This document shows, piece by piece, positions 1-62,690 of a stretch of DNA of 64,000 nucleotides. The notes below the pieces were generated by a model. It ran no database searches. It was not told the DNA's origin and saw only the letters and a program-made list of their open reading frames with translations. The DNA is from Nitrospirota bacterium. Its GTDB lineage: Bacteria; Nitrospirota; JACRHL01. How positions within the stretch are numbered: the first letter of the stretch is position 1; each line of letters starts with the position of its first letter. The translations under genes and the position numbers were made by a program. The stretch lies in NCBI GenBank assembly GCA_016212085.1, contig JACRHL010000021.1, forward strand, positions 27,925 to 91,924, read 5' to 3'.

Positions 1-568
1 GCCCATGATGGTGTCGGTGAACGTGTCCGCCCACCAGTTCTGGCAGCGCGACCTGCCGGAGCGGGTGGCGTGCACCCTGGTGGAGGCCAACCTCGACCCG
101 CGCTACCTGGAGCTGGAAATCACCGAGGGCACCTTCATGCACGACGCCGAGGAGACGGTGCGCATGCTCACCGACCTGAAGCACATCGGCCTGCGCCTGA
201 GCGTGGACGATTTCGGCACCGGTTACTCGTCGCTGGCCTACCTGCAACGCTTCCCCATCGACACCCTGAAGGTGGACCGCTCCTTCGTGACCGGCGTGAC
301 CACCAACCCGGACAGCGCCGCCATCACCCGCACGATCATCAACATGGCCCACTCCCTGGGCCTGGGCGTGATCGCCGAGGGGGTGGAGACGCCGGAGCAG
401 TTCGCGTTCCTCGCCGAGCAGGGGTGCAACCAGATCCAGGGCTACCTGTTCTCGGCGCCCCTCACCGCCGAGCGCTTCGGCACGCTGATCGCCGAGCGGC
501 GCCGCCTGGACGTGAAGGGGATGCTGGCCGGCGCGCGCGCCGCCGACCCCCTCGCCCTGGGCGAGTGA
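1..568 (+). CDS. EAL-domain c-di-GMP phosphodiesterase, C-terminal part (5' end outside window)
   Basis: VSVNVS, ELEITE, DDFGTGYSSL, LKVDRSF, AEGVET and QGYLFS motifs. Confidence 0.95.
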   Translation, partial: PMMVSVNVSAHQFWQRDLPERVACTLVEANLDPRYLELEITEGTFMHDAEETVRMLTDLKHIGLRLSVDDFGTGYSSLAYLQRFPIDTLKVDRSFVTGVTTNPDSAAITRTIINMAHSLGLGVIAEGVETPEQFAFLAEQGCNQIQGYLFSAPLTAERFGTLIAERRRLDVKGMLAGARAADPLALGE

Positions 569-583
569 CGCCCGACCGCTTTT

Positions 584-726
584 GGGCACCTCTATTAACC
601 TGCTGCGCACCCCGATTGCTGCGTTGGGCGGTGCTCGAACCCTCGCCTATCACCCAGATATGTCTCGGGTTCTCCGCTCCGTCCGCCTTGCACTCGGGGC
701 GCTCGCGACGGTTAATAGCGGTGCCC
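584..726 (+). mobile_element. MITE family A copy 1 (143 bp)
   Basis: TIRs gggcacctctattaacc/ggttaatagcggtgccc; TTTT on both flanks; highly similar copies at 49672, 50012 and 50680. Confidence 0.9.
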
Positions 727-863
727 TTTTCCTGGCCGGGGGCTCAAGTCGCCCCGGTGTCCGTCCGAAATGGAAACAGGTGGCCTGACGTACCCCGGAA
801 CGGGACGCAAAGCGGGGGGCCGTAGTTCTTTCTTTCCCACTGGATTCGATTGGGGAGCATGAC

Positions 864-1478
864 ATGTCCGGGCACAAGACATTGAGGAACGACGCCGGCT
901 TCACGCTGGTGGAGGTGGTGGTGGTGATCGCCGTGGTGGCCCTGCTGGCCGCCATCATGACGCCGCTCATCGCCAAGAACATCGACGACGCCAAGATCGG
1001 GCGCGCCGAGAACGAGGCCCAGGTGATCGCCGCGGCCGTCGGCAACTTCTACAAGGACGTGGGCCGCTGGCCGAGCATGGACGCCTCCGGCGCCTACAAC
1101 GGCGTGACCACGCTGGTGTCGGGCAACTCCGGCCTGGCGGGCACCGCCATCAACTCCAACGGCTGGGTGTCGAGCACCTCCGGGGCGACGGTGGACTTCA
1201 TCGAGAACCACCTGCTGAACAACGCCCCCAAGGGCACCGGCGCCTACCCGGCCACCGGACGTTCCTCCTGGCGCGGCCCGTACCTGAACGCGGCGCCGCT
1301 GGACCCGTGGGGAAGCCCGTACATGGTGAACATCGCGGCCACCAACACCAGCGCCGCGCCGCTCAAGGCCCTGGTGATCTCGGCCGGGCCCAACGGGGTG
1401 ATGGACACCGCCTTCGCCACCACCCGCACGACGCTGGCCGGCGGCGACGACATCGCCGTCAGCTTCCACGTCCGCTAG
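864..1478 (+). CDS. Major (pseudo)pilin, GspG-like
   Basis: Prepilin site GFTLVEVVVVIAVVALLAAI; WRGPYL and DPWGSPY motifs. Confidence 0.9.
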   Translation: MSGHKTLRNDAGFTLVEVVVVIAVVALLAAIMTPLIAKNIDDAKIGRAENEAQVIAAAVGNFYKDVGRWPSMDASGAYNGVTTLVSGNSGLAGTAINSNGWVSSTSGATVDFIENHLLNNAPKGTGAYPATGRSSWRGPYLNAAPLDPWGSPYMVNIAATNTSAAPLKALVISAGPNGVMDTAFATTRTTLAGGDDIAVSFHVR

Positions 1479-1496
1479 CCGGGAGCCCGCATTCCC

Positions 1497-3270
<1,774 letters not shown>

Positions 3271-48476: not shown

Positions 48477-48644
48477 GGGTTCCCCGCTACGGCCGCCGCC
48501 CCCTCCCCAGGAAAACGGCGGGATATCGCCTTCCTATCGGCACCCCGCCGGGCGGGATTGAGCAGGCGCCGGCAGCGCCGTTGAAAAACGCCGGTTTTCG
48601 GCGAACCCGCGTCCGCCACAGGGATGGGCTTTTTCAACACCCTG

Positions 48645-48673
48645 AAAACCGCCAAAACGCCAGAAACGCAAGG
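48645..48673 (+). promoter_or_regulatory. CAGAAACGC repeat motif, copy 1
   Basis: aaaaccgccaaaacgccagaaacgcaagg, about 90 bp before the terS operon. Confidence 0.55.
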
Positions 48674-48935: not shown

Positions 48936-49204
48936 GCGAGACCGGCAACTGGCACCTGGACCGGCGCGTGTCGGTGGGGCACCTGGTCACCACCCTCACC
49001 GTGCTGGTGGCCATGGTGCTGTGGGGGGCGCGGCTGGAGACGCGCATCGTGCTCATGGAGCAGGATGCCGCCCGCCAGGCGCGCGTCGACGCCCGCCAGG
49101 AGGCGGACGTGCAGCGCCTGCGCGAGGAGATCCGGGAGGAGCTGAAAAGCCTGAACGCCAAGATGGACCGCTTTTTCGAGCGGCTCATCAAGGGGGGTGA
49201 GTGA
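48932..49204 (+). CDS. Phage-type small membrane protein (1 TM plus coiled coil; holin-like?)
   Basis: WHLDRRVSVGHL, TM, coiled coil; coupled to terS. Confidence 0.65.
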   Translation: MSETGNWHLDRRVSVGHLVTTLTVLVAMVLWGARLETRIVLMEQDAARQARVDARQEADVQRLREEIREELKSLNAKMDRFFERLIKGGE

Positions 49205-49656
49205 CCCGGCCGGACACCGCCGCCGGCCAGCGCGGGCGCGGTACCCCCACGCGCTACACCATCGCCACCGCCCGCGCCATCTGCCAGCGCCTGGCGCGGG
49301 GCGAGCCCCTCACCCTGGTCTGCGCCGATCCGGCCATGCCCGCCTACCGCACGGTGATGGACTGGCTGGCGGCGCGGCCGCGCTTCCGGGAGATGTATGC
49401 CCAGGCGCGGGTGCTCCAGGCCCATGCCCTGGCGGACGAGATCCTCCAGGTGCTGCGCTGTGACCGGCTGCCCCCGGCGGACAAGCAGGCGCGCATCAAG
49501 GGGCTGGCGTGGCTGGCCGCCAAGCTGCACCCGCAGAAATACGGCGACCGCTCCGGCCCCGCCCCGGACGGCGCCCCGGCCCCCGGCTTCACGGTCATCG
49601 TGAACCCGCCGGCCATCGGGGCCGAACCCCTGGAACAGGAGAGTGACGATGAATAG
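49201..49656 (+). CDS. Terminase small subunit (Sf6 gp1-like)
   Basis: PTRYT...ICQRLARGEPL..VC.DPAMP...TVMDWL...FREMYAQAR...WLAAKLHPQKYGDR. Confidence 0.85.
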   Translation: MTRPDTAAGQRGRGTPTRYTIATARAICQRLARGEPLTLVCADPAMPAYRTVMDWLAARPRFREMYAQARVLQAHALADEILQVLRCDRLPPADKQARIKGLAWLAAKLHPQKYGDRSGPAPDGAPAPGFTVIVNPPAIGAEPLEQESDDE

Positions 49657-49671
49657 GCAGGAACAACGGAA

Positions 49672-49814
49672 GGGCACCTCTCAAAACCTGCTGCGCGCTC
49701 CGATTGCTGCGTTGGGCGGTGCTCGAACCCTCGCCTATCACCCAGATATGTCTCGGGCTCTGCGCTCCGTCCGCCTTGCACTCGGGGTGCTCGCGACGGT
49801 TTTGAGCGGTGCCC
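49672..49814 (+). mobile_element. MITE family A copy 2 (143 bp)
   Basis: TIRs; GGAA target duplication; in-frame and stop-free. Confidence 0.92.
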
Positions 49815-50011
49815 GGAAGCAGCAACCACCCCAACGCCGCCTCACCGCCCGCCCCGGCGAGGACGGCATCATTGCCGATGAGACCCCCACCCCGCGCCTG
49901 ATCGCCCTGGCCCGCGAGCTGGCGGCCAACCCGCAGGTGAGCCGGGAGGCGGCGTCCAAGGTGCTGTGGAGCGCCGTGAAGGCGGACCCACCCGCCATGC
50001 CGCCCCAACAT

Positions 50012-50154
50012 GGGCACGCCCGAAAACCTACTGCGCGGCCCCATCGCTGCGTTGGGCGGTGCTCGGCCCCTCGCCTATCGGCTTGATATGTCTCGGGGCC
50101 TGCGCTCCGTCCGCCTTGCGCTCGGGCCGCTCGCCACGGTTTTCGGGCGTGCCC
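50012..50154 (+). mobile_element. MITE family A copy 3 (143 bp)
   Basis: Perfect 17-bp TIRs gggcacgcccgaaaacc/ggttttcgggcgtgccc. Confidence 0.9.
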
Positions 50155-50668
50155 CGCCCGCTGGCACGACGACCCCGGCCGCCGCGACGCCGCCATGCGC
50201 GGCCTGACCGCGCTGGCCACCGATCCCGCGCGCCGCCACCAGAACCCGGACGAGGTGCTGCACCTGTGGGCCAGCGGGATGGAGGGCAACCCCGGCGCCT
50301 ACGAGCGGGCCCACCCCACGCCACCGTGGCGAACGGTGGGCCAGGTAGTTGGCTACGAGACCGACTTTTACGCGGACCAGCGCCGCTATCCCTTCACGGA
50401 CGGCCTCCGGGCCGATTGGCACGACGTGAGCGGCAAGGTCGGTGGCAAGATCGCCAAGGCCGCCCACGCCATCGGCGCCACCCAGGTGGAGCAGCGCTTG
50501 CTGGCCGACGCCGAGCGCGACCAACGGGCGGCGGAGGCGTTGCGAACGCAACACAAGTACGACCCGAACGCCTATCTGGCGTTCCTGGCGGGGCGGTACG
50601 GGCGGCAGGCCAATTCCTATGGGAACATCATTCGCAAGGTGGGCCCCCGTGTCGGCAGGAAAATATTT

Positions 50669-50822
50669 GGGCACCTCTAGGGCACCTCTATTAACCTGCT
50701 GCGCGCCCCGATTGCTGCGTTGGGCGGTGTTCGAACCCTCTCCTATCACCATGATATGTCTCGGATTCTGCGCTCCGTCCGCCTTGCACTCGCACCGCTC
50801 GCGACGGTTATTAGAAGTGCCC
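50669..50822 (+). mobile_element. MITE family A copy 4 with duplicated left end
   Basis: gggcacctcta twice in tandem; ATTT target duplication. Confidence 0.9.
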
Positions 50823-51424: not shown

Positions 51425-53188
51425 ATGGCCGAGGGACAGCGGTGTGAGTTCAAGCATGAGGCGTACAACTTCATCCGCACCCTCCCCGATGGAATTTGGA
51501 GGGCCGTGGACAGCCAGGAGCGGTGCTGGATGCGGACGGACACGGCAACCTTCACAACCGAGTCCGGCCCCGAACGCTACTGCCTGCTGCACGCCCGGGC
51601 GGGCCAGGAGCCGGAGGATCGTAAGGACTGGCCCCTGGCAATGCGGGAGGACGCCCAGGCGGCCCTGCTGGGACGGCTGGTCCGCGAGTGGGCGGAGGTG
51701 GTCGGGCAATTGCCGGAAGGCCAGCGGCCCGCGCTGGTGCTGGCGGGCATCCGGTGCGGTGACATCGACCTCAACAAGCAGGTTTTTCCCGCCCGGATCG
51801 ATTGCAGCGGGGCCAAGTTCATGGGCGACGCCTGGTTTGGCAAGGCCGAGTTCACGGGCGACGCCTTGTTTCGCGGGGCCACGTTCACGGGCAGCGCCGA
51901 GTTTGGCGGGGCCACGTTCACGGGCAGCGCCGAGTTTGGCGGGGCCACGTTCACGGGCGGCGCCGAGTTTGGCGGGGCCACGTTCACGGGCGACGCCAGG
52001 TTTGGCGGGGCCACGTTCACGGGCGACGCCAGGTTTGGCGGGGCCACGTTCACGGGCGACGCCTGGTTTCGCGGGGCCACGTTCACGGGCGACGCCTGGT
52101 TTCGCGGGGCCACGTTCACGGGCGACGCCGAGTTTGATCGTGCGGCGTTCAGCGGGGATGCCCTGTTCCGCCGCACACAGTTCGAGGGCCGGCTGGTGGC
52201 CGAAGCTGCATGGTTCCTGGGCCGGCTGGTGCTGGAGGACAACCAATTCGGCTTCCCCGCCGTGTTCTCCGGCTGCCACATGCACCGGCTCGAGTACCGC
52301 ACCCACAAGGGGGAGCGGCTGTTTTTCAACGGCTGCATCACCGTGGACCGGGTGGACGACCACCTGGTTGATGCGGAAACCCGCGGCACCCTTGACCTCG
52401 CCATTCTGGAGAATGGAGCCCGGCCCACGGAACGGCAGGCGGGCTGGCTCGGGTTCCAAGGCCAGCACTGCGAGCAGATCACCTTCCAGAACATGGACTT
52501 GAGCCGGGCGGATTTCGTCCGGGCGGACGTTTCCAAGACGCGCTTCATCTCCTGCCGCTGGAACCCGCCGGACAAGCCGCGCTATCCGAGGCTGTGGGGC
52601 CACCCGGACAAGCTGCCTTCGCAGGACCGGGAGCAGAACGAGCAGGAGTTGTTGCTGTTCAAGAACGCCTACGAGCAGCTCAAGAACAACCTGGAGGGGC
52701 ACCGGGATTACGTGCAGGCGGGGGCGTTCCACTATTGGGAGATGGACCTGCGCCAGCGGCTGCTGCGGCTGAGCGGCAAAAATGGACGCAAGAACAGCGC
52801 AGAACGTCCAGAGATGGCCCTGCGCCAGCGGCTGCTGCGGCTGCTGCGGCTGAGCGGACGGTGGCTGGAGCGGGTGCTGTTCGGCCTGTACCGGCTGACC
52901 GCCGATTATGGCGAGAGCTACGCCAAGCTATTCGTGACCATCGCCGTCACCCTGGGGCTGGCCACCCTGGGGGTGCATTGGCGGGAGTATCTGCCGTGGG
53001 ACGGGTGCGGGGTTTGGCAGACGTTCCACAACACCGTGTTCAGCCTGGTGCCGTCCGCGTTCCAGAAGGACAGTTCCAGCGCGTTGCAGCACGACGCCAG
53101 CAAGTGGATCGTGCTTGGCGAGGGCATCCTCCTGGTCGTCCTGGTGCCCATGTTCGTCATGGCCGTCCGCCGCCGGTTCCGGCGCTGA
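51425..53188 (+). CDS. Pentapeptide-repeat protein with C-terminal membrane domain
   Basis: About ten 11-aa FTGDAxFxGAT repeats; CxxH motif; TADYGESY followed by TM segments. Confidence 0.88.
   Translation: MAEGQRCEFKHEAYNFIRTLPDGIWRAVDSQERCWMRTDTATFTTESGPERYCLLHARAGQEPEDRKDWPLAMREDAQAALLGRLVREWAEVVGQLPEGQRPALVLAGIRCGDIDLNKQVFPARIDCSGAKFMGDAWFGKAEFTGDALFRGATFTGSAEFGGATFTGSAEFGGATFTGGAEFGGATFTGDARFGGATFTGDARFGGATFTGDAWFRGATFTGDAWFRGATFTGDAEFDRAAFSGDALFRRTQFEGRLVAEAAWFLGRLVLEDNQFGFPAVFSGCHMHRLEYRTHKGERLFFNGCITVDRVDDHLVDAETRGTLDLAILENGARPTERQAGWLGFQGQHCEQITFQNMDLSRADFVRADVSKTRFISCRWNPPDKPRYPRLWGHPDKLPSQDREQNEQELLLFKNAYEQLKNNLEGHRDYVQAGAFHYWEMDLRQRLLRLSGKNGRKNSAERPEMALRQRLLRLLRLSGRWLERVLFGLYRLTADYGESYAKLFVTIAVTLGLATLGVHWREYLPWDGCGVWQTFHNTVFSLVPSAFQKDSSSALQHDASKWIVLGEGILLVVLVPMFVMAVRRRFRR
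51818..52170 (+). repeat. 33-bp coding tandem repeat
   Basis: ggggccacgttcacgggcgacgcc(t/a)ggttt(c/g)gc units. Confidence 0.92.
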
Positions 53189-54336: not shown

Positions 54337-55026
54337 CTACTGCGTGCCCCGGAGGGAGAATAGGATATCGACGGCTTCGTGTACGTGCGTGTGGGGATTC
54401 GACGTGCCGTTGGCTGATGCCCGCAGCAGGCCGGCGGCAGCTAGTTGCCCTGCGGCGGCCCTTCTGTTTTCAAGGTGCTGAAAAATACCAGCGCTTCCTT
54501 TGTGGTAAGCGGGCCAGTGCTGTTTCAGCAGATGTTCCGTCTGCTCCCCGATGGACCGCCCCCCTGACGGCGCAATGGGTGCGGTATGGTCCGTGAAGTG
54601 CAGCAATAACCAAAACTCAAAGCAGGGCTCCGATGTAATGGCGCGGAAATCGGCCTGTCCGGCGGATTTTCTCCCACACTTCATGGTCAACGGGGTTTGT
54701 TGAATGGAAGCGACGGCGTTTTGGTAATGGTTGTGGCTGTCCCGGTCGAACACGCACAACACGTAATCGTAATCGGGATGCTTCCGGAATTCCTCTACAG
54801 CGGTCTCAACCAGCCGTTTCGGATCGCACCCGGCGCCAATAACCTTCATGTTCAGGGTCTGTATTCTTTGGCTGGCGCGGATTTCCTTGAAATAGGTGGC
54901 GGAGGATTTTCCGTCCTCACAGACCACAAGCGCCCGCTTGTAGGTTGAGCGGGTCGCCTCCCGCCGCTTCAACTCCTTGGCGGCGTGCGCCTTGCGCTTC
55001 TGGTGCAGCTTGTCCGGCGCCATCAA
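54337..55026 (-). CDS. RloB-family protein
   Basis: LVVCED, CVFDRD, SEPCFEFWLLLHF, NPHT. Confidence 0.9.
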   Translation of the reverse strand: MMAPDKLHQKRKAHAAKELKRREATRSTYKRALVVCEDGKSSATYFKEIRASQRIQTLNMKVIGAGCDPKRLVETAVEEFRKHPDYDYVLCVFDRDSHNHYQNAVASIQQTPLTMKCGRKSAGQADFRAITSEPCFEFWLLLHFTDHTAPIAPSGGRSIGEQTEHLLKQHWPAYHKGSAGIFQHLENRRAAAGQLAAAGLLRASANGTSNPHTHVHEAVDILFSLRGTQ

Positions 55027-56276
55027 AGCCGTTCCGGCGTCAGGACCGGGAGCGCGCCGTAGCGCCCGCTCATGTAACCCTTTTGCAGTTTTTCATCCAG
55101 GCGTGGCTTGAACTCGGACAGCGGCGTGAGCGTCGACGCCTGCGACGCGTCCTTTTCGACCAGCCAAATCTGGTCGCGCCGGAACAGGTCGTCCATCAAC
55201 GTTACATCGTGGGTGGTGAAGATAAGCTGTGCGTTTTTCGGGTTGTAATGGGGTGAATGGATCAGTTCCACCAGAAAACGCACCAGCTTAGGGTGCAGGC
55301 TGCTGAGCTCATCGATAACCAGCACCATGCCGTTCGCGATGATATCCCGCCACGGGCCGGCCAGGGCGAACATCGCCCTGGTACCGTCGGATTCCGATTC
55401 AATTGGAAACCGCTCCTGTCCGCTGCCGTCGGGGCACTCGTGGAGAAACACGGGCCGCCGCATCTTTTTGCCCACGATCTCTTGTTTCAATTCTTCTGGC
55501 GCGCTGGGAAGGTCGTCCGCCGTGATCGTCTTTCGATCGACAGCGATTCCATTGATGCCCAGGTCGGCGGCCTTCATGAAATTAGCAAGACCGGAAGCGC
55601 CGCCTTCATTTTCAATCATATCCAGCGTGTGAGCGATGTGACGGTACTCCAGCAAACCGTTCCCCATCAGGAACAGCCCCTCCTGGAACCACTCCGGGAT
55701 GACCGACAACTGCTCGTGGTTGAGCTGTGCCGCCGTCGACACGAACAGGGCGTTGGGGCGAGTGGCCTCCTGGATGACCTGCCTCTGCCCCAGCAGGCTG
55801 TTCCCCATCCCCCAGGTGTACGCATCGCTTGCATCGTCATAACTGCGCTTGAACCACATCTGCGCGCGGCCGACGGGCCAAGCAAACAGCCACTCCTCCA
55901 CCACCCGTTCGCGGGTCAGCGCAAATCCGTACTGGTAGTGGATGCCCTTGTGGATGAACAGGATCTCGAATTCGCTCGGCTGATTCCGGCTATCCCGGTC
56001 CAGGAGAAACGGCGTCGCGCCGGTTTTCGCCTTGGGCTCACGGCCCGTCGCGGAATCCCGGACAAAGTTGTGCATGAACGCCAGCGCATTGATTACGTTA
56101 GTCTTTCCGCTGGCATTGGGGCCGAACAGAGCGGCCGAGCGGAGGAGTCGGGGGGCCTTGGGGGCCTTGGGGTCGAAGGTGTTGCCGGGCATCTCCTTTC
56201 CGGAGCCCGCCACCATGGACAGCGTCTGCTTCTCCCGGATGGACCGGAAGTTGGTCACGCTGAACTCGATGAGCAT
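55023..56276 (-). CDS. AAA_21/AAA_15 ATPase (RloA/AbiLi-like)
   Basis: MLIEFSVTNFRSI, GPNASGKTN, ESDGT, IDE...LHP, QLIFTTH, GRYGALP. Confidence 0.92.
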   Translation of the reverse strand: MLIEFSVTNFRSIREKQTLSMVAGSGKEMPGNTFDPKAPKAPRLLRSAALFGPNASGKTNVINALAFMHNFVRDSATGREPKAKTGATPFLLDRDSRNQPSEFEILFIHKGIHYQYGFALTRERVVEEWLFAWPVGRAQMWFKRSYDDASDAYTWGMGNSLLGQRQVIQEATRPNALFVSTAAQLNHEQLSVIPEWFQEGLFLMGNGLLEYRHIAHTLDMIENEGGASGLANFMKAADLGINGIAVDRKTITADDLPSAPEELKQEIVGKKMRRPVFLHECPDGSGQERFPIESESDGTRAMFALAGPWRDIIANGMVLVIDELSSLHPKLVRFLVELIHSPHYNPKNAQLIFTTHDVTLMDDLFRRDQIWLVEKDASQASTLTPLSEFKPRLDEKLQKGYMSGRYGALPVLTPERL

Positions 56277-56497: not shown

Positions 56498-58312
56498 CTA
56501 CCCGATTAGCCCCGTGTCCGCCGGCAGGTCCGCCGTTCCCGGCATCTGCAACCCGGCGTTGATGCGGGCGGCCTCCGCCGCCGTTTTGGCGGCGCGGGCG
56601 GTGCGTTCGGCGATTTCGGCCCTGATGAGCTCCCGCTGGAGCATGGCCGCGTCGGTGGGGTCCGGGGCGGGGCCCCTCATGAGTTCCAGGATGCGCTCCC
56701 TGCCGCGCAGGGAGCTGGCCTCCACCAGGGCCTCCGGCGGGATGGGCACGCCGCCCTCCGCCAGGCGCGCCAGGGTCTGGAACTCCTCCTGCCGCACGGA
56801 GGCCGTGTCGGGCACGTCGCCCACGATGATGTCCACGTCCAGCTCGGCCACGTGGTTCTGGTGGGCCACCACGTCGTCCAGGCTGGGGTCGCCGATCAGC
56901 TCCGGCGGGATCTCGCCGAACTCGTCCACCAACTGGGCGGCGCGGGTGACGGGGATGTTCAGCCCCACCCAGGCCAGGCTGCGCTCGTCGTTGGTGACGC
57001 GCACCCAGCGCACCTCGGTCCAGAACTGGCGGATGCGCCCCCACGCCTTGCGGTAGGCGCGGGTCTGCCAGGCGCGCAGGGTGTCCAGGAGCGGCCCCAG
57101 CTCCATGCGCGCCCCCTGCTGCAAGAGCTGGATGGCGCGGCCGCTGGCGCCCTCGGCCCCGGTGATCTGGGCGGCGCCCGCGCCCACGGCGTCGATCTCG
57201 TTCTTGGCCTCGGTGAGCAGCTGGAACTGGGCCGTGGCCATGTCGCCCGTGGGCAGGATCTCCAGCTCGAAGCCGGGCACCGTCTCCAGCCAGCCGTCGG
57301 GCCGGGCCAGCTCGCGGCGGGCGCGGGCCACGTCCTCCACCGCCCCCTTCTCGGCGCGCACCTGGCGCACGGAGAGCAGGTGCAGCGCCTTGGAGCGGCG
57401 CTTGTTGATCTCGTCCTGGATGCCGATCATCTGGCGCACGGCGCCGTAGCGCTCGCCATCGCGGGCGACGAAGGCGGCGGCGCACACGTAGGGGTCTTCC
57501 GGGTTGCCCTCGTCGTCCCGGTAGGGGGAGGCGGTGGGGCCCTTGAGGATGCCGCCCCGGCAGAACACCGCCTGGAACACCTGGCTCCCCTCCTTGTACC
57601 AGCACTCCACCACGCGCACCCGCCGGCGGCGGCGGTCGGCCCAGCGGCTGGGCTTGTCGTCGTAGGTGCCACTCTCGGCCTCGGTGTAGGCGCTGTCGAG
57701 CAGTTCCAGGTGGTTGGGATACTTGGCCTGGGCCTCCGCCAGGTCCATCCAGATCACCTGGCCGCGGTACCTTGCGTCCTCCAGGTCGCGGCGGCGGGCG
57801 TGGGGGTCCACGAAGGCGCGATCCCAGCCGATGGGGCTGATGGTCACGCGGGTTTGTGTCCCCCTGCGCGCCGCCACCACCTCGGCGAAGCCCGAGCCCT
57901 CCACCAGCATGTGCTCGAACACCTGGGAGCGGACCTGGTCGAAACCGTTGTCGTCGAGCACGAAGCGGATGGCCTCGGTGGCGGCCTTGGCGGCGCCCTC
58001 GTCCGCCGGGTTGCGCGGGAAGCAGCGCGGGTCGGTGCGGCTTTGCCGCTCCAGGCCCAAGAGGTAGTCCACCTTGGGCTTGATGCGGTTGACCACGATG
58101 GGGGCCTGGCCGCGCCGGGACAGGGCGTCCTCCTCGGTGGCGGTCCACTGGCGGCCGTCGTAATAGTCGCGGTCGCGCTCGGCGTGCAGGCGGCCCTCGA
58201 GACTGGCGTCCTCCGCCTCGTCGAAAAAGCCCACCAGCTTGGCCAGCAGGGCCTCCCGTTCGGCCTGCTCGGCCTGGGATTGCCCGTTTTGGGATTGCCC
58301 GTTTTGGGTCAT
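56498..58312 (-). CDS. Phage portal protein (P22-like/podovirus type)
   Basis: DRDYYDGRQW, NRIKPKV..LLG, YGAVRQMIGIQDEINKRRSK, SGRAI, N.VAELDVDIIV; ATGA-coupled to terL. Confidence 0.88.
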   Translation of the reverse strand: MTQNGQSQNGQSQAEQAEREALLAKLVGFFDEAEDASLEGRLHAERDRDYYDGRQWTATEEDALSRRGQAPIVVNRIKPKVDYLLGLERQSRTDPRCFPRNPADEGAAKAATEAIRFVLDDNGFDQVRSQVFEHMLVEGSGFAEVVAARRGTQTRVTISPIGWDRAFVDPHARRRDLEDARYRGQVIWMDLAEAQAKYPNHLELLDSAYTEAESGTYDDKPSRWADRRRRRVRVVECWYKEGSQVFQAVFCRGGILKGPTASPYRDDEGNPEDPYVCAAAFVARDGERYGAVRQMIGIQDEINKRRSKALHLLSVRQVRAEKGAVEDVARARRELARPDGWLETVPGFELEILPTGDMATAQFQLLTEAKNEIDAVGAGAAQITGAEGASGRAIQLLQQGARMELGPLLDTLRAWQTRAYRKAWGRIRQFWTEVRWVRVTNDERSLAWVGLNIPVTRAAQLVDEFGEIPPELIGDPSLDDVVAHQNHVAELDVDIIVGDVPDTASVRQEEFQTLARLAEGGVPIPPEALVEASSLRGRERILELMRGPAPDPTDAAMLQRELIRAEIAERTARAAKTAAEAARINAGLQMPGTADLPADTGLIG

Positions 58313-59757
58313 GCGGTTTTCCACCCGATCGTCTCCTTTTCGCAGAATGCCTGGTGCCACCGGTCGGCGGCGGGGTTGGCGGTGGCCCGCGCGGGCGCCT
58401 GGGGGCGGCTCATGCAGGCGTACCGGGTTTCGTCATAGGCGTGGTCCTCGGCGGCGCTGTCCACGTCCTCCGGGTCGGCGGGGTCCAGGGGCAGTTCGGG
58501 CACCGTGCGCAGAAAGCCGTCCAGGCAGGAGGAGAACACGTACAGCATGGGCCGCCCGTCCTCCCCCTCCAGGCGGCGGCGCACCTCCTGGTAGCCCGCC
58601 TTGCGGTTGTTGGCGGCGCGGCGCAGGATGACCCCCGCCGCCGCCATGTGCTCGGCCACGCTGGGGCCGTCGTGCTGGCCGAAGATGGCCGGGTCGGCCA
58701 CCCCGTAGGCGATCTTCTCGCCCTTCTCGCGCGCAAGGATGCCCTGGGCCACCTGGGTGCTGGTGAGGCGCAGGCCCCGGTCGGGCCGGCCGTCCCAGCC
58801 GTACCACTCCCGGTAGCGCACCAGGGCCCCGGCGGGGAGACAGGCCCCGCCGGGCAGGGATGCCCCGCCGGGCAGGGGCGCCCCGCCGGCCACCGCCCAC
58901 CACCCCACCGAGAACGGCTTCGAGCTGCCCCAGTCCAGGGCCCGGAAGCGCGGCCAGTGGGCGGGCACGGCAAACGGCGCCAGCACGTGGCGTTGCCGGT
59001 CGAACAACTCCAGGGCCTGGCCGGCGGCGATGTCCCAATCGCCATCGCGCAGGGCGCGCACCAGCTCCGGCGCGCCCAGGCCGCTTAGGCGCTCCAGGTA
59101 TTCCGGGTCCTGGGCCAGCAGCGTGGGGTTGTCGGCCAGGCGCGCGGGGATGTACTGGCGGCGCATGCCCCCCTCCTCCGGGCGGGCGCGCCACACGCGG
59201 CCCGGCTCGGCGGGGGCGACCCAGGCGGCCTTCACCCAGGCGTGGCCCACCGAGCCGGGGTTGCTGGCGCACTCGATGCGCGGCAGCAGCCCCGCGTGGC
59301 GCACCGGCACCTTGAGCCCCGCGCGCCGCACCCGCGAGCGCAGAAAGCGGTACTGCGCCTCGGAGAAGTGGGTCAGCTCGTCGATGAGCAGCACGTGGAT
59401 CTCCGCCCCCTGGTAGCGGGCCACGTCGGTCTCGTGCTGCAAATGGGCCAGCTTGAGCACGCTGCCGCTTGCGAAGCGGAACTCCGCCTGCTGCTCGCGC
59501 CACGCCACCTGGCCGGCGCCGGCAAGGGGGGCGAGCAGCTCGTGCAGGTTGCCGGGGCCGCGCAGGTGATTGGCGCGCAGGTCCGGGTGGGTGCGGCGGA
59601 ACAGGTACACCTGGATGCCCGGCACCTCCAGGCACCAGCGGATGCCCGACACGCGCAAGAGGAAGCTCTTGCCGCCCCCCGCCGCGCCGCCGTAGAGCAG
59701 CTCGGTGGCATGGCTCAAGAAGGCCTCCGACTGTTTGGCATGCAAGCTGACCCGCAC
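58309..59757 (-). CDS. Terminase large subunit
   Basis: LYGGAAGGGKS, YQGAE, IDELTHF, ASNPGSVGHAWVK, LDWG, DHAYDETRY; GGAGG RBS before GTG. Confidence 0.93.
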   Translation of the reverse strand: MRVSLHAKQSEAFLSHATELLYGGAAGGGKSFLLRVSGIRWCLEVPGIQVYLFRRTHPDLRANHLRGPGNLHELLAPLAGAGQVAWREQQAEFRFASGSVLKLAHLQHETDVARYQGAEIHVLLIDELTHFSEAQYRFLRSRVRRAGLKVPVRHAGLLPRIECASNPGSVGHAWVKAAWVAPAEPGRVWRARPEEGGMRRQYIPARLADNPTLLAQDPEYLERLSGLGAPELVRALRDGDWDIAAGQALELFDRQRHVLAPFAVPAHWPRFRALDWGSSKPFSVGWWAVAGGAPLPGGASLPGGACLPAGALVRYREWYGWDGRPDRGLRLTSTQVAQGILAREKGEKIAYGVADPAIFGQHDGPSVAEHMAAAGVILRRAANNRKAGYQEVRRRLEGEDGRPMLYVFSSCLDGFLRTVPELPLDPADPEDVDSAAEDHAYDETRYACMSRPQAPARATANPAADRWHQAFCEKETIGWKTA

Positions 59758-59799
59758 CGGCCCTCCCAACGGTTCGTGACCACCACCGGGGTCCGAGGT

Positions 59800-59864
59800 T
59801 ATCCGCCCGGACGGCCATGCGGCGTTACGTTTCTTGCGTTTCCTGCGTTTCTGGACGTTGCCGG
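59800..59864 (-). promoter_or_regulatory. CAGAAACGC repeat motif, copy 2
   Basis: Minus strand: ccggcaacgtccagaaacgcaggaaacgcaagaaacg...gcatggc...ggcggata. Confidence 0.6.
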
Positions 59865-59993
59865 CGGGAGGGGGTAAGGCATCGCGCGCGCCGGATGCGG
59901 GATGCCGGATGTTTGTCAAAATGCTGAACGGCTTGAGGCCCGCTCCGGGCGCTGCTAGGATGGCCGGAACCTGCCTGCCGCCAAAGGGGTGCC

Positions 59994-61247
59994 GTGCGCG
60001 TTTTTTTGTTCATCCTGGCCGTCTGCTGCGCCCTGGCCGCGCCGCCCGTGGAATTCGCGCGGGCGGCGGACGACGGGCGCTTGCCGGTGCTGGAGGCGCT
60101 GCTCGAGCGGTCGGCGGCGGGGAATCCGGCCCTGTCGCCGGATCTGACGCAGGCCGCCGCCGCCGTCCGCGCCGGCCGCACCGACGAGGCCGTCGAGCGG
60201 CTGACCCCCCTGGCGGACGCGGGCGACCCCTGGGCCCAGGCGCTCCTGGGGGAGGTGCTGCTCAGGACGGGCGCTCCGGCCAACCTGGCCAAAGCCATTG
60301 GCAGCCTGACCGCCGCCGCCAACGGGGGCGTGGCAGAGGCCGCGTTCTGGATCGCGGAATATTTTGATCCGGCCATCGGCCTCTGGCCGGACGTGGAGTG
60401 GGCGCGCACCTGGTACCAGCGGTCGGCGGAAGGGGGGTATGCCGGCGCCGCCTACACGCTGGCACGCAACTACTACTTCGGCGGACCGGGCCTTCCGGCC
60501 GATATCGCCGAGGCAGTGCGGTGGTACAAGGTGGCGGCGGAAGGCGGGGAGCCGCTGGCCGCCAGGGTGCTGGGGGAGCTGTATTGGAATGGCCTCGGCG
60601 TGGCGGCGGACCGCCGCGAGGCGCTACGCTGGTACCAGGTGGCGGCCGACCATGGGGATCTGGAGGGTCTCACGCTGGTGGGGTGGGCCCTGGTTACCGG
60701 CGAATGGCTTGACGCGGACCCGCCCCGGGGGCACGCGCTGCTCGACCGCGCGGTGCGACAGGGATACCCGGACGCGATCGGCCGAAAAGCGCTGACCCTT
60801 TTTCTCGGCCGGGGGTTGGAACAGGATGTGGACGCGGCCATCCATATGCTCATGCCGCTGGCGGAAGCCGGCGACACCCTTTCGCAGGCCCGTTTGGCGA
60901 CTTTCCTGAGCATGACGGACGATGGGGCGGACAACCTTTCCCGCGCGCTTCGGCTGGCGCGCGCGTCCGCCGAGCAGGGCGACATGGCGGGCCAGTTCGA
61001 ACTGGCCCGCCTGCTGATCACTCGTGACGCCATACGCGACATGAACGAGGGTCGCCGCTGGCTGGAACGGGCCGCCCGCACCTGCCTGGACCAGCGCGCC
61101 CCCGACGTTGCGAACCTGATCGTGCCGCTGCTGCGCGCGCACTTTCCCGATTCGCCCGTGCTGCCGGAACTGGAGCGGATGCTGGCGCCGTTGGCCGGCG
61201 TATTGGCGGATCCGGCCCTATTGCAACGGTTTGTCCTGGGGCCCTGA
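59994..61247 (+). CDS. Secreted Sel1-repeat protein
   Basis: Signal peptide; repeated A..WY..AAE.G...A...LG..Y..G. Confidence 0.9.
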   Translation: MRVFLFILAVCCALAAPPVEFARAADDGRLPVLEALLERSAAGNPALSPDLTQAAAAVRAGRTDEAVERLTPLADAGDPWAQALLGEVLLRTGAPANLAKAIGSLTAAANGGVAEAAFWIAEYFDPAIGLWPDVEWARTWYQRSAEGGYAGAAYTLARNYYFGGPGLPADIAEAVRWYKVAAEGGEPLAARVLGELYWNGLGVAADRREALRWYQVAADHGDLEGLTLVGWALVTGEWLDADPPRGHALLDRAVRQGYPDAIGRKALTLFLGRGLEQDVDAAIHMLMPLAEAGDTLSQARLATFLSMTDDGADNLSRALRLARASAEQGDMAGQFELARLLITRDAIRDMNEGRRWLERAARTCLDQRAPDVANLIVPLLRAHFPDSPVLPELERMLAPLAGVLADPALLQRFVLGP

Positions 61248-62126
61248 CAACGCGTTTGCCGCGTCGTTGAACACGTTGCTGAACTGGTCCCCTAGAACCC
61301 CCTGGGCGACCGGGTTTCGTGGGCCAATAAAGAGCCGGGCCGCCACGCCACCCATCAGACTCCTGGACCCGTCCCGTCCCATGGCGGCGATTGCGGCTTC
61401 CGCCGCCGATTCATGGGGAACGCCCAGTTCGCGTAGGGTGCGGTATGCTTCGCCCCCCGCGTTTGCCGCGTGGAACGTGGTACCGGTGGCGGCACCGACG
61501 GGGGTGCCGTAGGCGGATACCCCGATTTGGAGGCCCGATCCCACCGTCTCGGCGAAGTCCGCCCCGACCCCCTGCGGGTGGTACCGCCCCGCCTGGCGCG
61601 CAAAACCCTCGGCGGCCGTGCCCATATGGGTGGCGGTGGCGCCGAATCCGGCGGCGCCGGCGGCGGCCGCGCCCCCCAGGGCCAGGCCGGTTTGCGTGTC
61701 CAGCACCCCCTGCCGCACGCGGGCGTTGAAGTTCCGGGTGAAGTCGATCGGGACATCGGCGCGCGCCCGGTCAGCCGCCATGTCCCATTCCGGGCGATAG
61801 GCCTCCAGGCGCGGATGGATGCCCGTGGGGTCGAAGGGTGCCCCCGGCCCGATTCCCAGCCGCTGAAAGGCCGGCGTCGGCTCGGCCGCCGGCCGCCAGC
61901 CGTTGGCCGCCTGCCGGTCCAGGGCCGTGGGGGCGGCGGGGCCGAATGGTCCGGCCGACCAGGGCGTTTCGTCCTGGATCATCGGCCCCATGGCATTGCG
62001 GGGGATGGTGTTGAACGGCACCACCAATGGCGGCGGGGTCTCGTCGGCGATCATCGGTCCCATGGCGTCATGGGGGATGCTCGTGCCGTGGGCGGCGCGG
62101 CGGGTGAGGTTCAGTGGATTCGGCAT
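61218..62126 (-). CDS. Hypothetical Ala/Gly-rich protein, possibly a phage ejection/cargo protein
   Basis: GGGAG RBS; duplicated AMGPMI(A/Q)DETP; glycine-zipper-like segments. Confidence 0.65.
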   Translation of the reverse strand: MPNPLNLTRRAAHGTSIPHDAMGPMIADETPPPLVVPFNTIPRNAMGPMIQDETPWSAGPFGPAAPTALDRQAANGWRPAAEPTPAFQRLGIGPGAPFDPTGIHPRLEAYRPEWDMAADRARADVPIDFTRNFNARVRQGVLDTQTGLALGGAAAAGAAGFGATATHMGTAAEGFARQAGRYHPQGVGADFAETVGSGLQIGVSAYGTPVGAATGTTFHAANAGGEAYRTLRELGVPHESAAEAAIAAMGRDGSRSLMGGVAARLFIGPRNPVAQGVLGDQFSNVFNDAANALSGPQDKPLQ

Positions 62127-62163: not shown

Positions 62164-62217
62164 TATCCACCCGCCATGCCCGACGCCTTGCGTTGTCTGC
62201 GTTTCTGGCGGTTCCGG
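62164..62217 (-). promoter_or_regulatory. CAGAAACGC repeat motif, copy 3
   Basis: Minus strand: ccggaaccgccagaaacgcagacaacgcaagg...gcatggc.ggtggata. Confidence 0.6.
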
Positions 62218-62490
62218 CACGGTTTCTTCCGCCGCCGTCAGCGGCCACGCGCCCGGTGCCGGAAAAATCGTCCGGTGGCGGGCGTTTTCCGGTCAACCGA
62301 TCCGGCCCCCGCGCGTTGATGCACCCACGGGGGCCGTTCCGGCCCTCGGCCCGCCGCCGTCCCCTGGGGGCGGGATGGGACGGGATGCGGCCGCGGGTCC
62401 CTCATGGAGCCCCCCCTCCGTGCCGTGGCCGCATCCCGGCCTTGTTCCCTTGGGGGTTGTGCCCCCCCTCCCCGGACTGTTTCACCTCCA

Positions 62491-62656
62491 GGGCACCTCT
62501 ATCAACCTGCCGCGCGCCCCGATTGCTGCGCCAAGGCGGTGCTCGAACCCTCGCCTATCTCCCGGATATGTCTCGGGCTCCGCGCGGCGTAACGGTGCCG
62601 CTCCCCTCGGGGCGCCTTGCGCCCGGGACCGCTCGCGACGGTTTTGAGAGGTGCCC
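62491..62656 (+). mobile_element. MITE family A, long variant (166 bp)
   Basis: gggcacctct.../...agaggtgccc; TCCA target duplication. Confidence 0.9.
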
Positions 62657-62690
62657 TCCAATCCGCAAAAACGGGTGTCGCGGCAGCCTG

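Follow-up and report, generated by a model that had tools for sequence, protein, structure and literature searches.

Why should two phage-like proteins with otherwise unrelated sequences carry the same six residues at the same place near their N termini? This question is raised by a 64,000-nucleotide (nt) stretch of DNA from a Nitrospirota bacterium (here referred to as the window), which corresponds to bases 27925 to 91924 of contig C18 in a genome (G000) of 2.70 Mb, 23 contigs, 99% completeness, and 71% G+C. A preliminary description of the window noted the hexapeptide IADETP in the products of gene A, which follows the terminase small-subunit gene terS, and of gene B, on the opposite strand, and proposed that it might be a targeting or cleavage signal for variable cargo or ejection proteins. 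Here we report that the motif is over-represented in the genome, that it is present on further unrelated proteins, one of them with an RHS-type toxin tip, and that it also stands at the N terminus of the protein in scaffold position next to a major capsid gene. We tentatively favor a reading, to which we accord slightly less than an even chance, in which a short leader that copies the terminal motif of the scaffolding protein would bring variable cargo into procapsids.

The position shared by genes A and B, residues 26 to 31, proved exact when gene A was checked by script after excision of a miniature inverted-repeat transposable element (MITE) and its duplication. The 147 nt removed are a multiple of 3, which keeps the frame, and the restored reading equals the 33-residue string given in the preliminary description. 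Gene B, whose N terminus is MPNPLNLTRRAAHGTSIPHDAMGPMIADETPPP..., has the second copy reported for it, IQDETP at residues 50 to 55, 24 residues from the first. The remainder of the two proteins is indeed unrelated: BLASTP of the two parts of gene A against gene B aligned the motif alone, pairing IIADETPTPRLI with MIADETPPPLVV (E = 0.012). The motif is not limited to these two proteins, since further carriers were found on contigs C4 and C20 and at C18:107728, outside the window. Nor is its position fixed, as it occupies residues 8 to 13 of the scaffold-position protein on C4 and residues 21 to 26 (or 5 to 10) of the C20 protein; three of the leaders are similar in length, though residues 26 to 31 are no general rule.

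The motif is real and over-represented beyond chance. A six-frame translation of the genome (5,408,362 codons) contained IADETP five times against 0.048 expected, two of the five being one tandem duplicate, and I[AQ]DETP six times against 0.059 expected, while reversed and permuted motif controls gave 0, 0, 1, 0, 0, 0, and 0 occurrences. In its full form, the motif consists of a hydrophobic residue, I, A or Q, D, E, T, and P, usually followed by more prolines; looser regular expressions retrieved mostly unrelated proteins, such as response regulators. Its coding pattern had 0 matches in all five of the family relatives searched. The C20 tandem duplicate apart, the DNA flanking the 18-nt core is nonhomologous: in fixed register, 27 to 45 of 100 bases agree. 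Among six independent copies, the D-E-T-P codons vary in no column at first or second positions and in four columns at third positions; if variation were random, the chance that all four varying columns among the 12 would be third positions is 1 in 495. Because the variation is confined to third positions, selection acts at the level of the peptide.

These codon data bear on the alternative that what is conserved is DNA or RNA, for example a site for regulation or a signal for translation, and that its reading as IADETP is accidental. Eight phage-like units in the genome are headed by promoter-like direct repeats of the GAAACGCAnGAAACGCAAGG type, and for four of the eight sites the distance downstream from this shared repeat is 150 to about 330 nt; by eye, CAGGACGAAACGCC, which encodes Q-D-E-T-P, also resembles the GAAACGC repeat unit. 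However, none of the eight first and second codon positions varies, the motif of gene A is ~1.2 kb from the repeat of its unit, and P0007, a remote relative of gene B, retains the peptide in different codons. We therefore regard a nucleic acid element as extremely improbable.

Gene B was its own sole match among 5.8 billion clustered proteins and had no relative in the genomes of 40 relatives; an exhaustive search of 1.84 billion representatives then yielded P0007 as a single remote relative (E = 3e-4; pairwise BLASTP E = 6e-17, 29% identity). This protein retains both motif copies in the variant form GPMIEDVTP, in IPFNASGPMIEDVTP and IPSNASGPMIEDVTPW, with ASGPMIEDVTP as the counterpart of copy 1 and ASGPMIEDVTPW as that of copy 2. 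The alignment with P0007 begins at residue 15 of gene B, and M1 is therefore a better start for gene B than M25, where the public gene call begins (P0001, 278 aa). P0007 is encoded on one 1780-bp metagenome contig (L022), too short to reveal its phage, and was absent from the genome and viral contigs searched; it matched no Pfam, PHROG, or NCBIfam family. Upstream of it stands ...GATACGCAA..., resembling the AAACGCA-type repeat of G000.

The carrier on C20 links the motif to toxins. The protein reads ...MSDIIADETPAWYY, and it aligns with gene B solely at the leader and motif, as gene A does. No Pfam, PHROG, or NCBIfam family and no MuF domain was matched, yet its C-terminal ~110 residues are 54, 50, and 37% identical to domains that follow the RHS-associated core in proteins P0003 to P0005, in which TIGR03696 scores 49.7 and 48.9 bits, which exceed the cut-off, and 31.9 bits, which narrowly misses it. 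In the 3' part of the gene and in the downstream DNA, the G+C content drops to 42 to 63%. Polymorphic toxins combine a common N-terminal region with unrelated C-terminal parts, and this arrangement is found among the carriers; a C-terminal tip shared with other toxin families is found for the C20 protein only, as searches of protein collections returned no RHS-type toxin tip relatives for gene A or gene B. By its sequence, the C20 protein has a polymorphic-toxin architecture with a new kind of N-terminal part. A 203-aa open reading frame (ORF; L002:8893-9504, minus strand), a candidate immunity gene, overlaps the end of the toxin gene within the low-GC stretch and matches no Pfam, PHROG, or NCBIfam family. 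The low-GC island as a whole (L002:7200-10200 on C20, 42 to 63%) holds the toxin tip, this ORF, and a protein with an Mrr-type restriction endonuclease domain (L002:7390-8256; PF04471, E = 2.2e-30). The remaining carrier, at C18:107728, reads GVIADETPPP...MIRDET in a frame without a start codon. A good ribosome-binding site and ATG lie 25.7 codons upstream in another frame, and the motif would stand at about residue 26 only if a one-base shift is assumed; this copy looks frameshifted.

Several of the carriers are pseudogenes, and the prophage is fragmented and full of MITEs. The motif might therefore lack a present function and be a relic of recombination in a decaying prophage, in which other genes became joined to the scaffold gene's 5' end or to a cassette of promoter plus leader. 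That cassettes can be copied is evident on C20, where a MITE and a 97-nt leader form a tandem duplication. We nevertheless consider a relic quite unlikely: the leaders have no DNA homology outside the 18-nt motif, variation is at synonymous positions only, and the internal second copy of gene B is kept, along with the first, in a relative of 29% identity.

The connection of the motif with capsid assembly comes from contig C4. A 242-aa protein there starts MRDMSDIVQDETPP, with IVQDETP at residues 7 to 13, and its gene immediately precedes that for the major capsid protein (phrog_334, E = 1.2e-77; PF13252, E = 1.5e-56), which is followed by an adaptor-like gene and by tail-fiber genes. Among cultured phages, the capsid protein is closest to those of CBW1004C-Prop1 (49% identity) and of the Pseudanabaena phages Pam5, Pan3, and Pam1; the gene order in these phages is terS, terL, portal, scaffold, capsid. 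The C4 protein matches gp45 of CBW1004C-Prop1, which is encoded between the portal and capsid genes (E = 3e-6). A scaffold mimic is recognized by its motif lying on a terminus of the phage's own scaffold-position protein, and this is where I[AQ]DETP lies. In relatives from the family, homologues upstream of capsid genes start MKPLDNILSPPP in genome G004, MKTLDEIVGDG in G003, MKALDEILQEDVP in G006, and MKSLEEILEG in G005; by eye, the G000 start is colinear with that of G006 from M1 to P13.

The C-terminal ends of the scaffold-position proteins resemble their N-terminal ends. Examples are WRPKSIEEILKG in G005 and, in a second G006 prophage, DPLDAALPKHFG compared with the N-terminal DALDAAMPKHG; paired terminal motifs include KSLEEIL/KSIEEIL and DALDAAMPKH/DPLDAALPKH. 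An unbiased 5-mer check of eight such proteins placed the best match to the first 12 residues within the last 16 residues in five of them (for G006_C47, whose motif is at 9 to 19, the comparison took the first 20 residues). As a partner of the N terminus, the C-terminal window ranks 11th of 166 in G004 and 7th of 239 in Pam5, and a coarser 7-mer terminal test with shuffles was significant in two of the eight. Because the N-terminal partner is at the extreme C terminus in five of eight, the scaffold termini are best seen as repeated contact motifs.

This C-terminal motif leads to a second class of leader. The pattern RP..L[DE][DES][IL][LF] had no match when reversed, against five in the six frames of the genome: the C-terminal scaffold end WRPKSLEEIL, three protein N termini, and one unexplained match on contig C15. 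The leaders, of the forms FRPTPLE[SD]I[LF]P... and PPSLDELFPDP, resemble WRPKSLEEIL, and the C18:116768 and C20:16191-16826 proteins share just their first ~52 residues (58% identity). The 343-aa and 261/211-aa leader proteins matched no Pfam, PHROG, or NCBIfam family. Downstream of the C18:116768 and C20:16191-16826 genes stand small membrane or lipoprotein genes and paralogous fragments, like those of toxin-immunity arrays.

The genes discussed so far are scattered. Behind the eight repeats stand the terS unit, with gene A as its fourth gene; the terL-portal unit; gene B; a unit at C18:96920; the frameshifted IADETP ORF; the 343-aa protein, with SLDELFPDP; the C20 toxin gene; and the scaffold-capsid cluster. 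Seven of the repeat sites account for 8 of 14 matches to the pattern, and the C4 variant was found by eye. These AAACGCA-type repeats probably serve the units as a common late promoter or activator site. In five relatives, the promoter-like pattern was at the level of the reversed control, except on two small G001 contigs. Similar repeats occur upstream of a lysozyme-like gene (by eye, no family search) on a small G001 contig, and a gene for an HTH_17 protein (L003:9141-9536) lies just before one repeat site in G000. The portal and terL genes are separate from both terS and the capsid gene, with head genes spread over several loci, including C4:44000-63000 (L001), and host-type genes (pentapeptide, globin-like, AAA_21, and Sel1) lie between the units.

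Loci of this kind are also compatible with a docking or export tag for a partner outside the head, such as a chaperone, a host factor, the membrane, or a secretion route for polymorphic toxins, in which case the likeness to the scaffold N terminus would be a coincidence or point to a common noncapsid partner. The common leader, variable C termini, RHS-type tip, low-GC 3' region, and small downstream ORFs are polymorphic-toxin-like, the second leader class lacks the phage-type promoter repeat, and related phages do not share the motif among their proteins. Against such a tag, neither an RHS core nor the type VI secretion protein TssC nor a sheath protein is present in the 99% complete genome, and by eye the leaders have no signal-peptide-like hydrophobic stretch. 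The scaffold-position protein itself bears the motif, and I[AQ]DETP is in the first ORF of four of the eight repeat-headed units and in the fourth gene of a fifth. On balance, we judge a nonhead partner unlikely.

According to the scaffold-copy reading that we favor, I[AQ]DETP would be the form that the scaffolding protein's N-terminal motif takes in this phage. Proteins with the motif would be recruited to the assembling procapsid by using the scaffold terminus's own contact, be it to the capsid protein, to the portal, or to the scaffold core, and would afterwards be carried inside the head as cargo or ejection proteins. The carriers would be gene B, gene A before its breakage, the C20 toxin-domain protein, and the decayed ORF at C18:107728, and a leader with two copies, like that of gene B, would bind a multimeric target with higher avidity. 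Binding to a head component, packaging, and delivery of the carriers are what we infer from these data.

Such a leader would be a variation on capsid-targeting and polymorphic-toxin leaders that are already known. Encapsulin cargo-loading peptides are short and terminal and dock diverse cargo inside a shell of HK97 fold, although they are usually C-terminal and belong to nonviral compartments. In phage T4, capsid targeting sequences (CTSs) are removed by the prohead protease. The T4 internal proteins are described as diverse, having in common the CTS alone, by which they enter the prohead's scaffolding core (PMC3012670). A short N-terminal peptide as the sole common feature of diverse proteins of one phage is likewise what we find here. 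The present phage, in contrast, is P22-like and short-tailed, and its motif is also the scaffold's own terminus, sometimes occurs twice per leader, and lies 8 to 26 residues from the start.

The CTSs are at the same time the closest concept (PMC3012670) for a motif that would serve as the cleavage site of a head-maturation or other protease, with the leader as a removable propeptide. A position near the N terminus and flanking prolines would suit an exposed linker. However, the genome contains no S78 prohead protease (PF04586), CBW1004C-Prop1 and Pam5 list no prohead protease between their portal and capsid genes, and two copies 24 residues apart suit binding better than cutting. The S77 profile (PF03420) had no match either, but its control was silent too, which voids that answer. 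Cleavage is thus very unlikely, and the cleavage half of the preliminary proposal is weakened; the half concerned with a targeting signal for variable cargo gains from the unrelated carriers, the RHS-type tip, and the scaffold N terminus. Overall, the preliminary proposal is supported in part, and it survives its own refuting condition, since further proteins bear the motif and the one relative of gene B has preserved both copies as variants.

A further parallel is found in the system of SaPI1 and 80alpha, in which the CpmB protein is described as copying the C-terminal helix-and-hook of the 80alpha scaffolding protein (RIIK motif) to bind the capsid protein (PMC5644958). There, as we propose here, an unrelated protein bears the terminal motif of the scaffold, and in that system it makes the same capsid contacts (PMC5644958). 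The 80alpha motif stands at the C terminus, its copier competes as a scaffold and resizes the capsid, and cryo-electron microscopy has resolved the contact, whereas the motif described here is N-terminal and on putative cargo. In the MuF polymorphic toxins of temperate phages, a toxin domain is joined to an N-terminal part associated with the phage head, and delivery by particles has been proposed for them (PMC5576092). MuF is a folded domain of the packaging module in phages of Firmicutes; here there is only a leader with a motif of six or seven residues, and Pfam detected no MuF (Phage_Mu_F / SPP1 gp7) domain on gene A, gene B, or the C20 protein. The P22 ejection proteins gp7, gp16, and gp20 are described as co-assembling with the scaffold and leaving with the DNA (PMC12005531). 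The carriers had no Pfam or PHROG match and do not belong to the gp7, gp16, or gp20 families. We know of no common leader motif for the P22 ejection proteins.

If the scaffold-copy reading is correct, the leader would serve P22-type capsids as a small, transferable address tag, readable from sequence as a copy of the scaffold ends, and packaged or injected proteins of other phages could be found by seeking copies of their scaffold termini. Loading by a leader would bear on how ejection proteins are recruited, an open question in the field. It would also give temperate phages and phage-derived particles an added route for carrying polymorphic toxins and provide a natural handle for loading foreign proteins. 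Even a mere relic would document an unusual scaffolding-protein family with matching N- and C-terminal motifs.

A number of results weigh against this reading. Gene A is broken by two MITEs and a stop codon, a duplicated leader copy 5' of the C20 protein is cut by a MITE directly after the motif, and the C18:107728 copy, as noted, appears frameshifted. Gene A and gene B have no Pfam, PHROG, or NCBIfam family, and neither has a recognizable toxin or ejection-protein domain. The C4 protein had no significant BLASTP match to the annotated Pam5 scaffolding protein (E = 0.23), and the N- and C-terminal motifs of the G000 scaffold-position protein resemble each other weakly, the C-terminal window ranking 5th of 213. 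The shared promoter-like repeat is missing from the second leader class. Among seven related elements (two complete phage genomes and five loci of 15 to 20 kb), the terminal 5-mer of the scaffold occurs at both scaffold ends and on no other ORF, so that mimicry by cargo is no general habit of this phage group. Finally, a working phage is doubtful because the head genes lie in several separate loci.

The last point could have another explanation. The P22-like head genes might form a domesticated, vertically inherited particle, similar to a gene transfer agent and distributed over several loci, that loads interbacterial toxins and effectors by means of leaders copying the scaffold ends; in G000, the AAACGCA-type repeat would co-ordinate these loci. 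Capsid homologues are present in five of six other genera of the family (61 to 63% identity in four; 55% in G001, over residues 2 to 72 only), and portal homologues in all five of five (65 to 70% identity). In G003, G004, and G006, 19 kb separate the portal gene from the capsid gene, or the two lie on different contigs. The head-gene elements (L017-L021 and L045-L050) have a host-like G+C content, and those of G004 and G006 share a flanking membrane-protein gene. Identity between G000 and G006 was 63% for one host protein. The large head genes, moreover, are intact. A domesticated particle would fit the spread of capsid and portal genes, the unlinked loci, and the host-like G+C content, and it would amount to a capsid-based protein delivery system with exchangeable cargo, but we hold it to be quite improbable.

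Coordinates of the features discussed (unprefixed positions are those of the window; other positions are prefixed with contig or locus)
Feature	Location	Strand	Remarks
Repeat, terS/gene A unit	48642-48673	+	AAACGCA-type
Terminase small subunit (Sf6 type)	49201-49656	+	PF20901, E = 1.9e-31
Gene A, 5' part	49649-50086	+	ATG at 49649; MITE in frame; stop inside second MITE
MITE copy in gene A	49673-49813	.	141 bp; CGGAAG 6-bp target duplication on each side
IADETP in gene A	49871-49888	+	Residues 26-31 after removal of MITE and duplication
Second MITE copy in gene A	About 50012-50155	.	Without clear duplication; brings in-frame stop 50084-50086
Gene A, 3' part	50195-50680	+	161 aa; same frame as 5' part
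Portal (P22 type) and terminase large subunit	56498-59919	-	PF16510, E = 6.9e-110; PF03237, E = 1.4e-8
Repeat, terL-portal unit	59823-59854	-	
Sel1-repeat protein	59994-61247	+	417 aa; Pfam Sel1, E = 6.7e-23; signal-peptide-like N terminus (by eye)
Gene B	61218-62126	-	302 aa; proline-rich N-terminal leader with two motif copies; C-terminal part Gly/Ala-rich
Motif copy 2, gene B	61962-61979	-	IQDETP, residues 50-55, inside AMGPMIQDETPW
Motif copy 1, gene B	62034-62051	-	IADETP, residues 26-31, inside AMGPMIADETPPP
Repeat, gene B	62186-62208	-	CCAGAAACGCAGACAACGCAAGG on the gene's strand; ~60 nt upstream of start codon
Other repeat sites	C18:96920, C18:107563, C18:108272; C20:10816; C4 upstream of 53673		
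Second-class N terminus	C18:108364-109395 (L003:10365-11396)		PPSLDELFPDPLA
Second-class N terminus	C18:116768-117553 (L003:18769-19554)		FRPTPLESILPPERP
Second-class N terminus	C20:16191-16826 (L002)		FRPTPLEDIFPDPLA
Scaffold-position protein	L001:8946-9674	-	
Scaffold-position protein	L017:9322-9909		
Scaffold-position protein	L019:9279-9890		
Scaffold-position protein	L020:741-1337		
Scaffold-position protein	L018:10954-11703	-	
Scaffold-position protein	L021:10923-11843	-	
Scaffold-position protein	L007:21559-22365		
Scaffold-position protein	L008:4192-4998		

The neighborhood of gene B is conserved as well. Gene B is convergent with the Sel1 gene, their 3' ends overlapping by 30 nt, and P0007 is accompanied on L022 by a homologous convergent Sel1 gene, the two occupying 95-1183 (plus strand) and 1166-1780 (minus strand) with an overlap of 18 nt. 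Being kept in two distant sequences, the two genes are a candidate effector-immunity or effector-partner pair, although the Sel1 gene is convergent with gene B and not downstream of it, as a cognate immunity gene would be. An AlphaFold2 model of gene B from a two-row alignment was unusable (mean predicted local distance difference test score of 34.7). Its nearest clusters in the ESM Atlas are viral hypothetical proteins of 311 to 315 aa (score 0.93, 151 to 154 shared features), and one of them has the LPD22 domain (PF18834) in 21% of its members, which is a lead only, as all structure rows had template modeling (TM) scores of <0.3. Co-folding of the capsid protein (six-row alignment A1) with residues 1 to 62 of gene B, run without controls, gave no support and is no evidence either way. 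One stretch of a viral contig matched a degenerate DNA pattern for GPMI.D.TP; it was taken as chance because it is antisense within a 532-aa ORF that is tail-fiber-like by eye (no family search). In Pam5, the product of gene 13 (L008:12074-14152, 693 aa), in the presumed ejection-protein region, has a duplicated N-terminal motif, NLVPVDYDPFA ... KLVPVDHDPFA, in parallel to gene B.

Gene A starts 8 nt before the end of the terS stop codon (TAG, 49654-49656), and its 3' part matched itself alone in the protein collection searched. The MITE family that interrupts it, of ~141 bp, gave 140 BLASTN pieces, corresponding to about 130 copies in 2.7 Mb. Copies in the window are at 560-700, 49673-49813, about 50012-50155, 50681-50822, and about 62490-62660, three of them in or just after gene A. 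The element matches no Rfam family and folds as a long hairpin (z = -3.9), with paired changes between copies in its terminal stems (ATTAA/TTAAT, CAAAA/TTTTG, and CGAAAA/TTTTCG). The MITE was rejected as part of the signal because of its ~130 copies genome-wide and because the flanks are not common. Several contigs terminate in a MITE copy. Between the phage pieces of the window lie genes for an AAA_21 (AbiEii-like) ATPase (55023-56276, minus strand) and a pentapeptide-repeat membrane protein (51425-53188, plus strand), and another pentapeptide protein adjoins the scaffold gene on contig C4.

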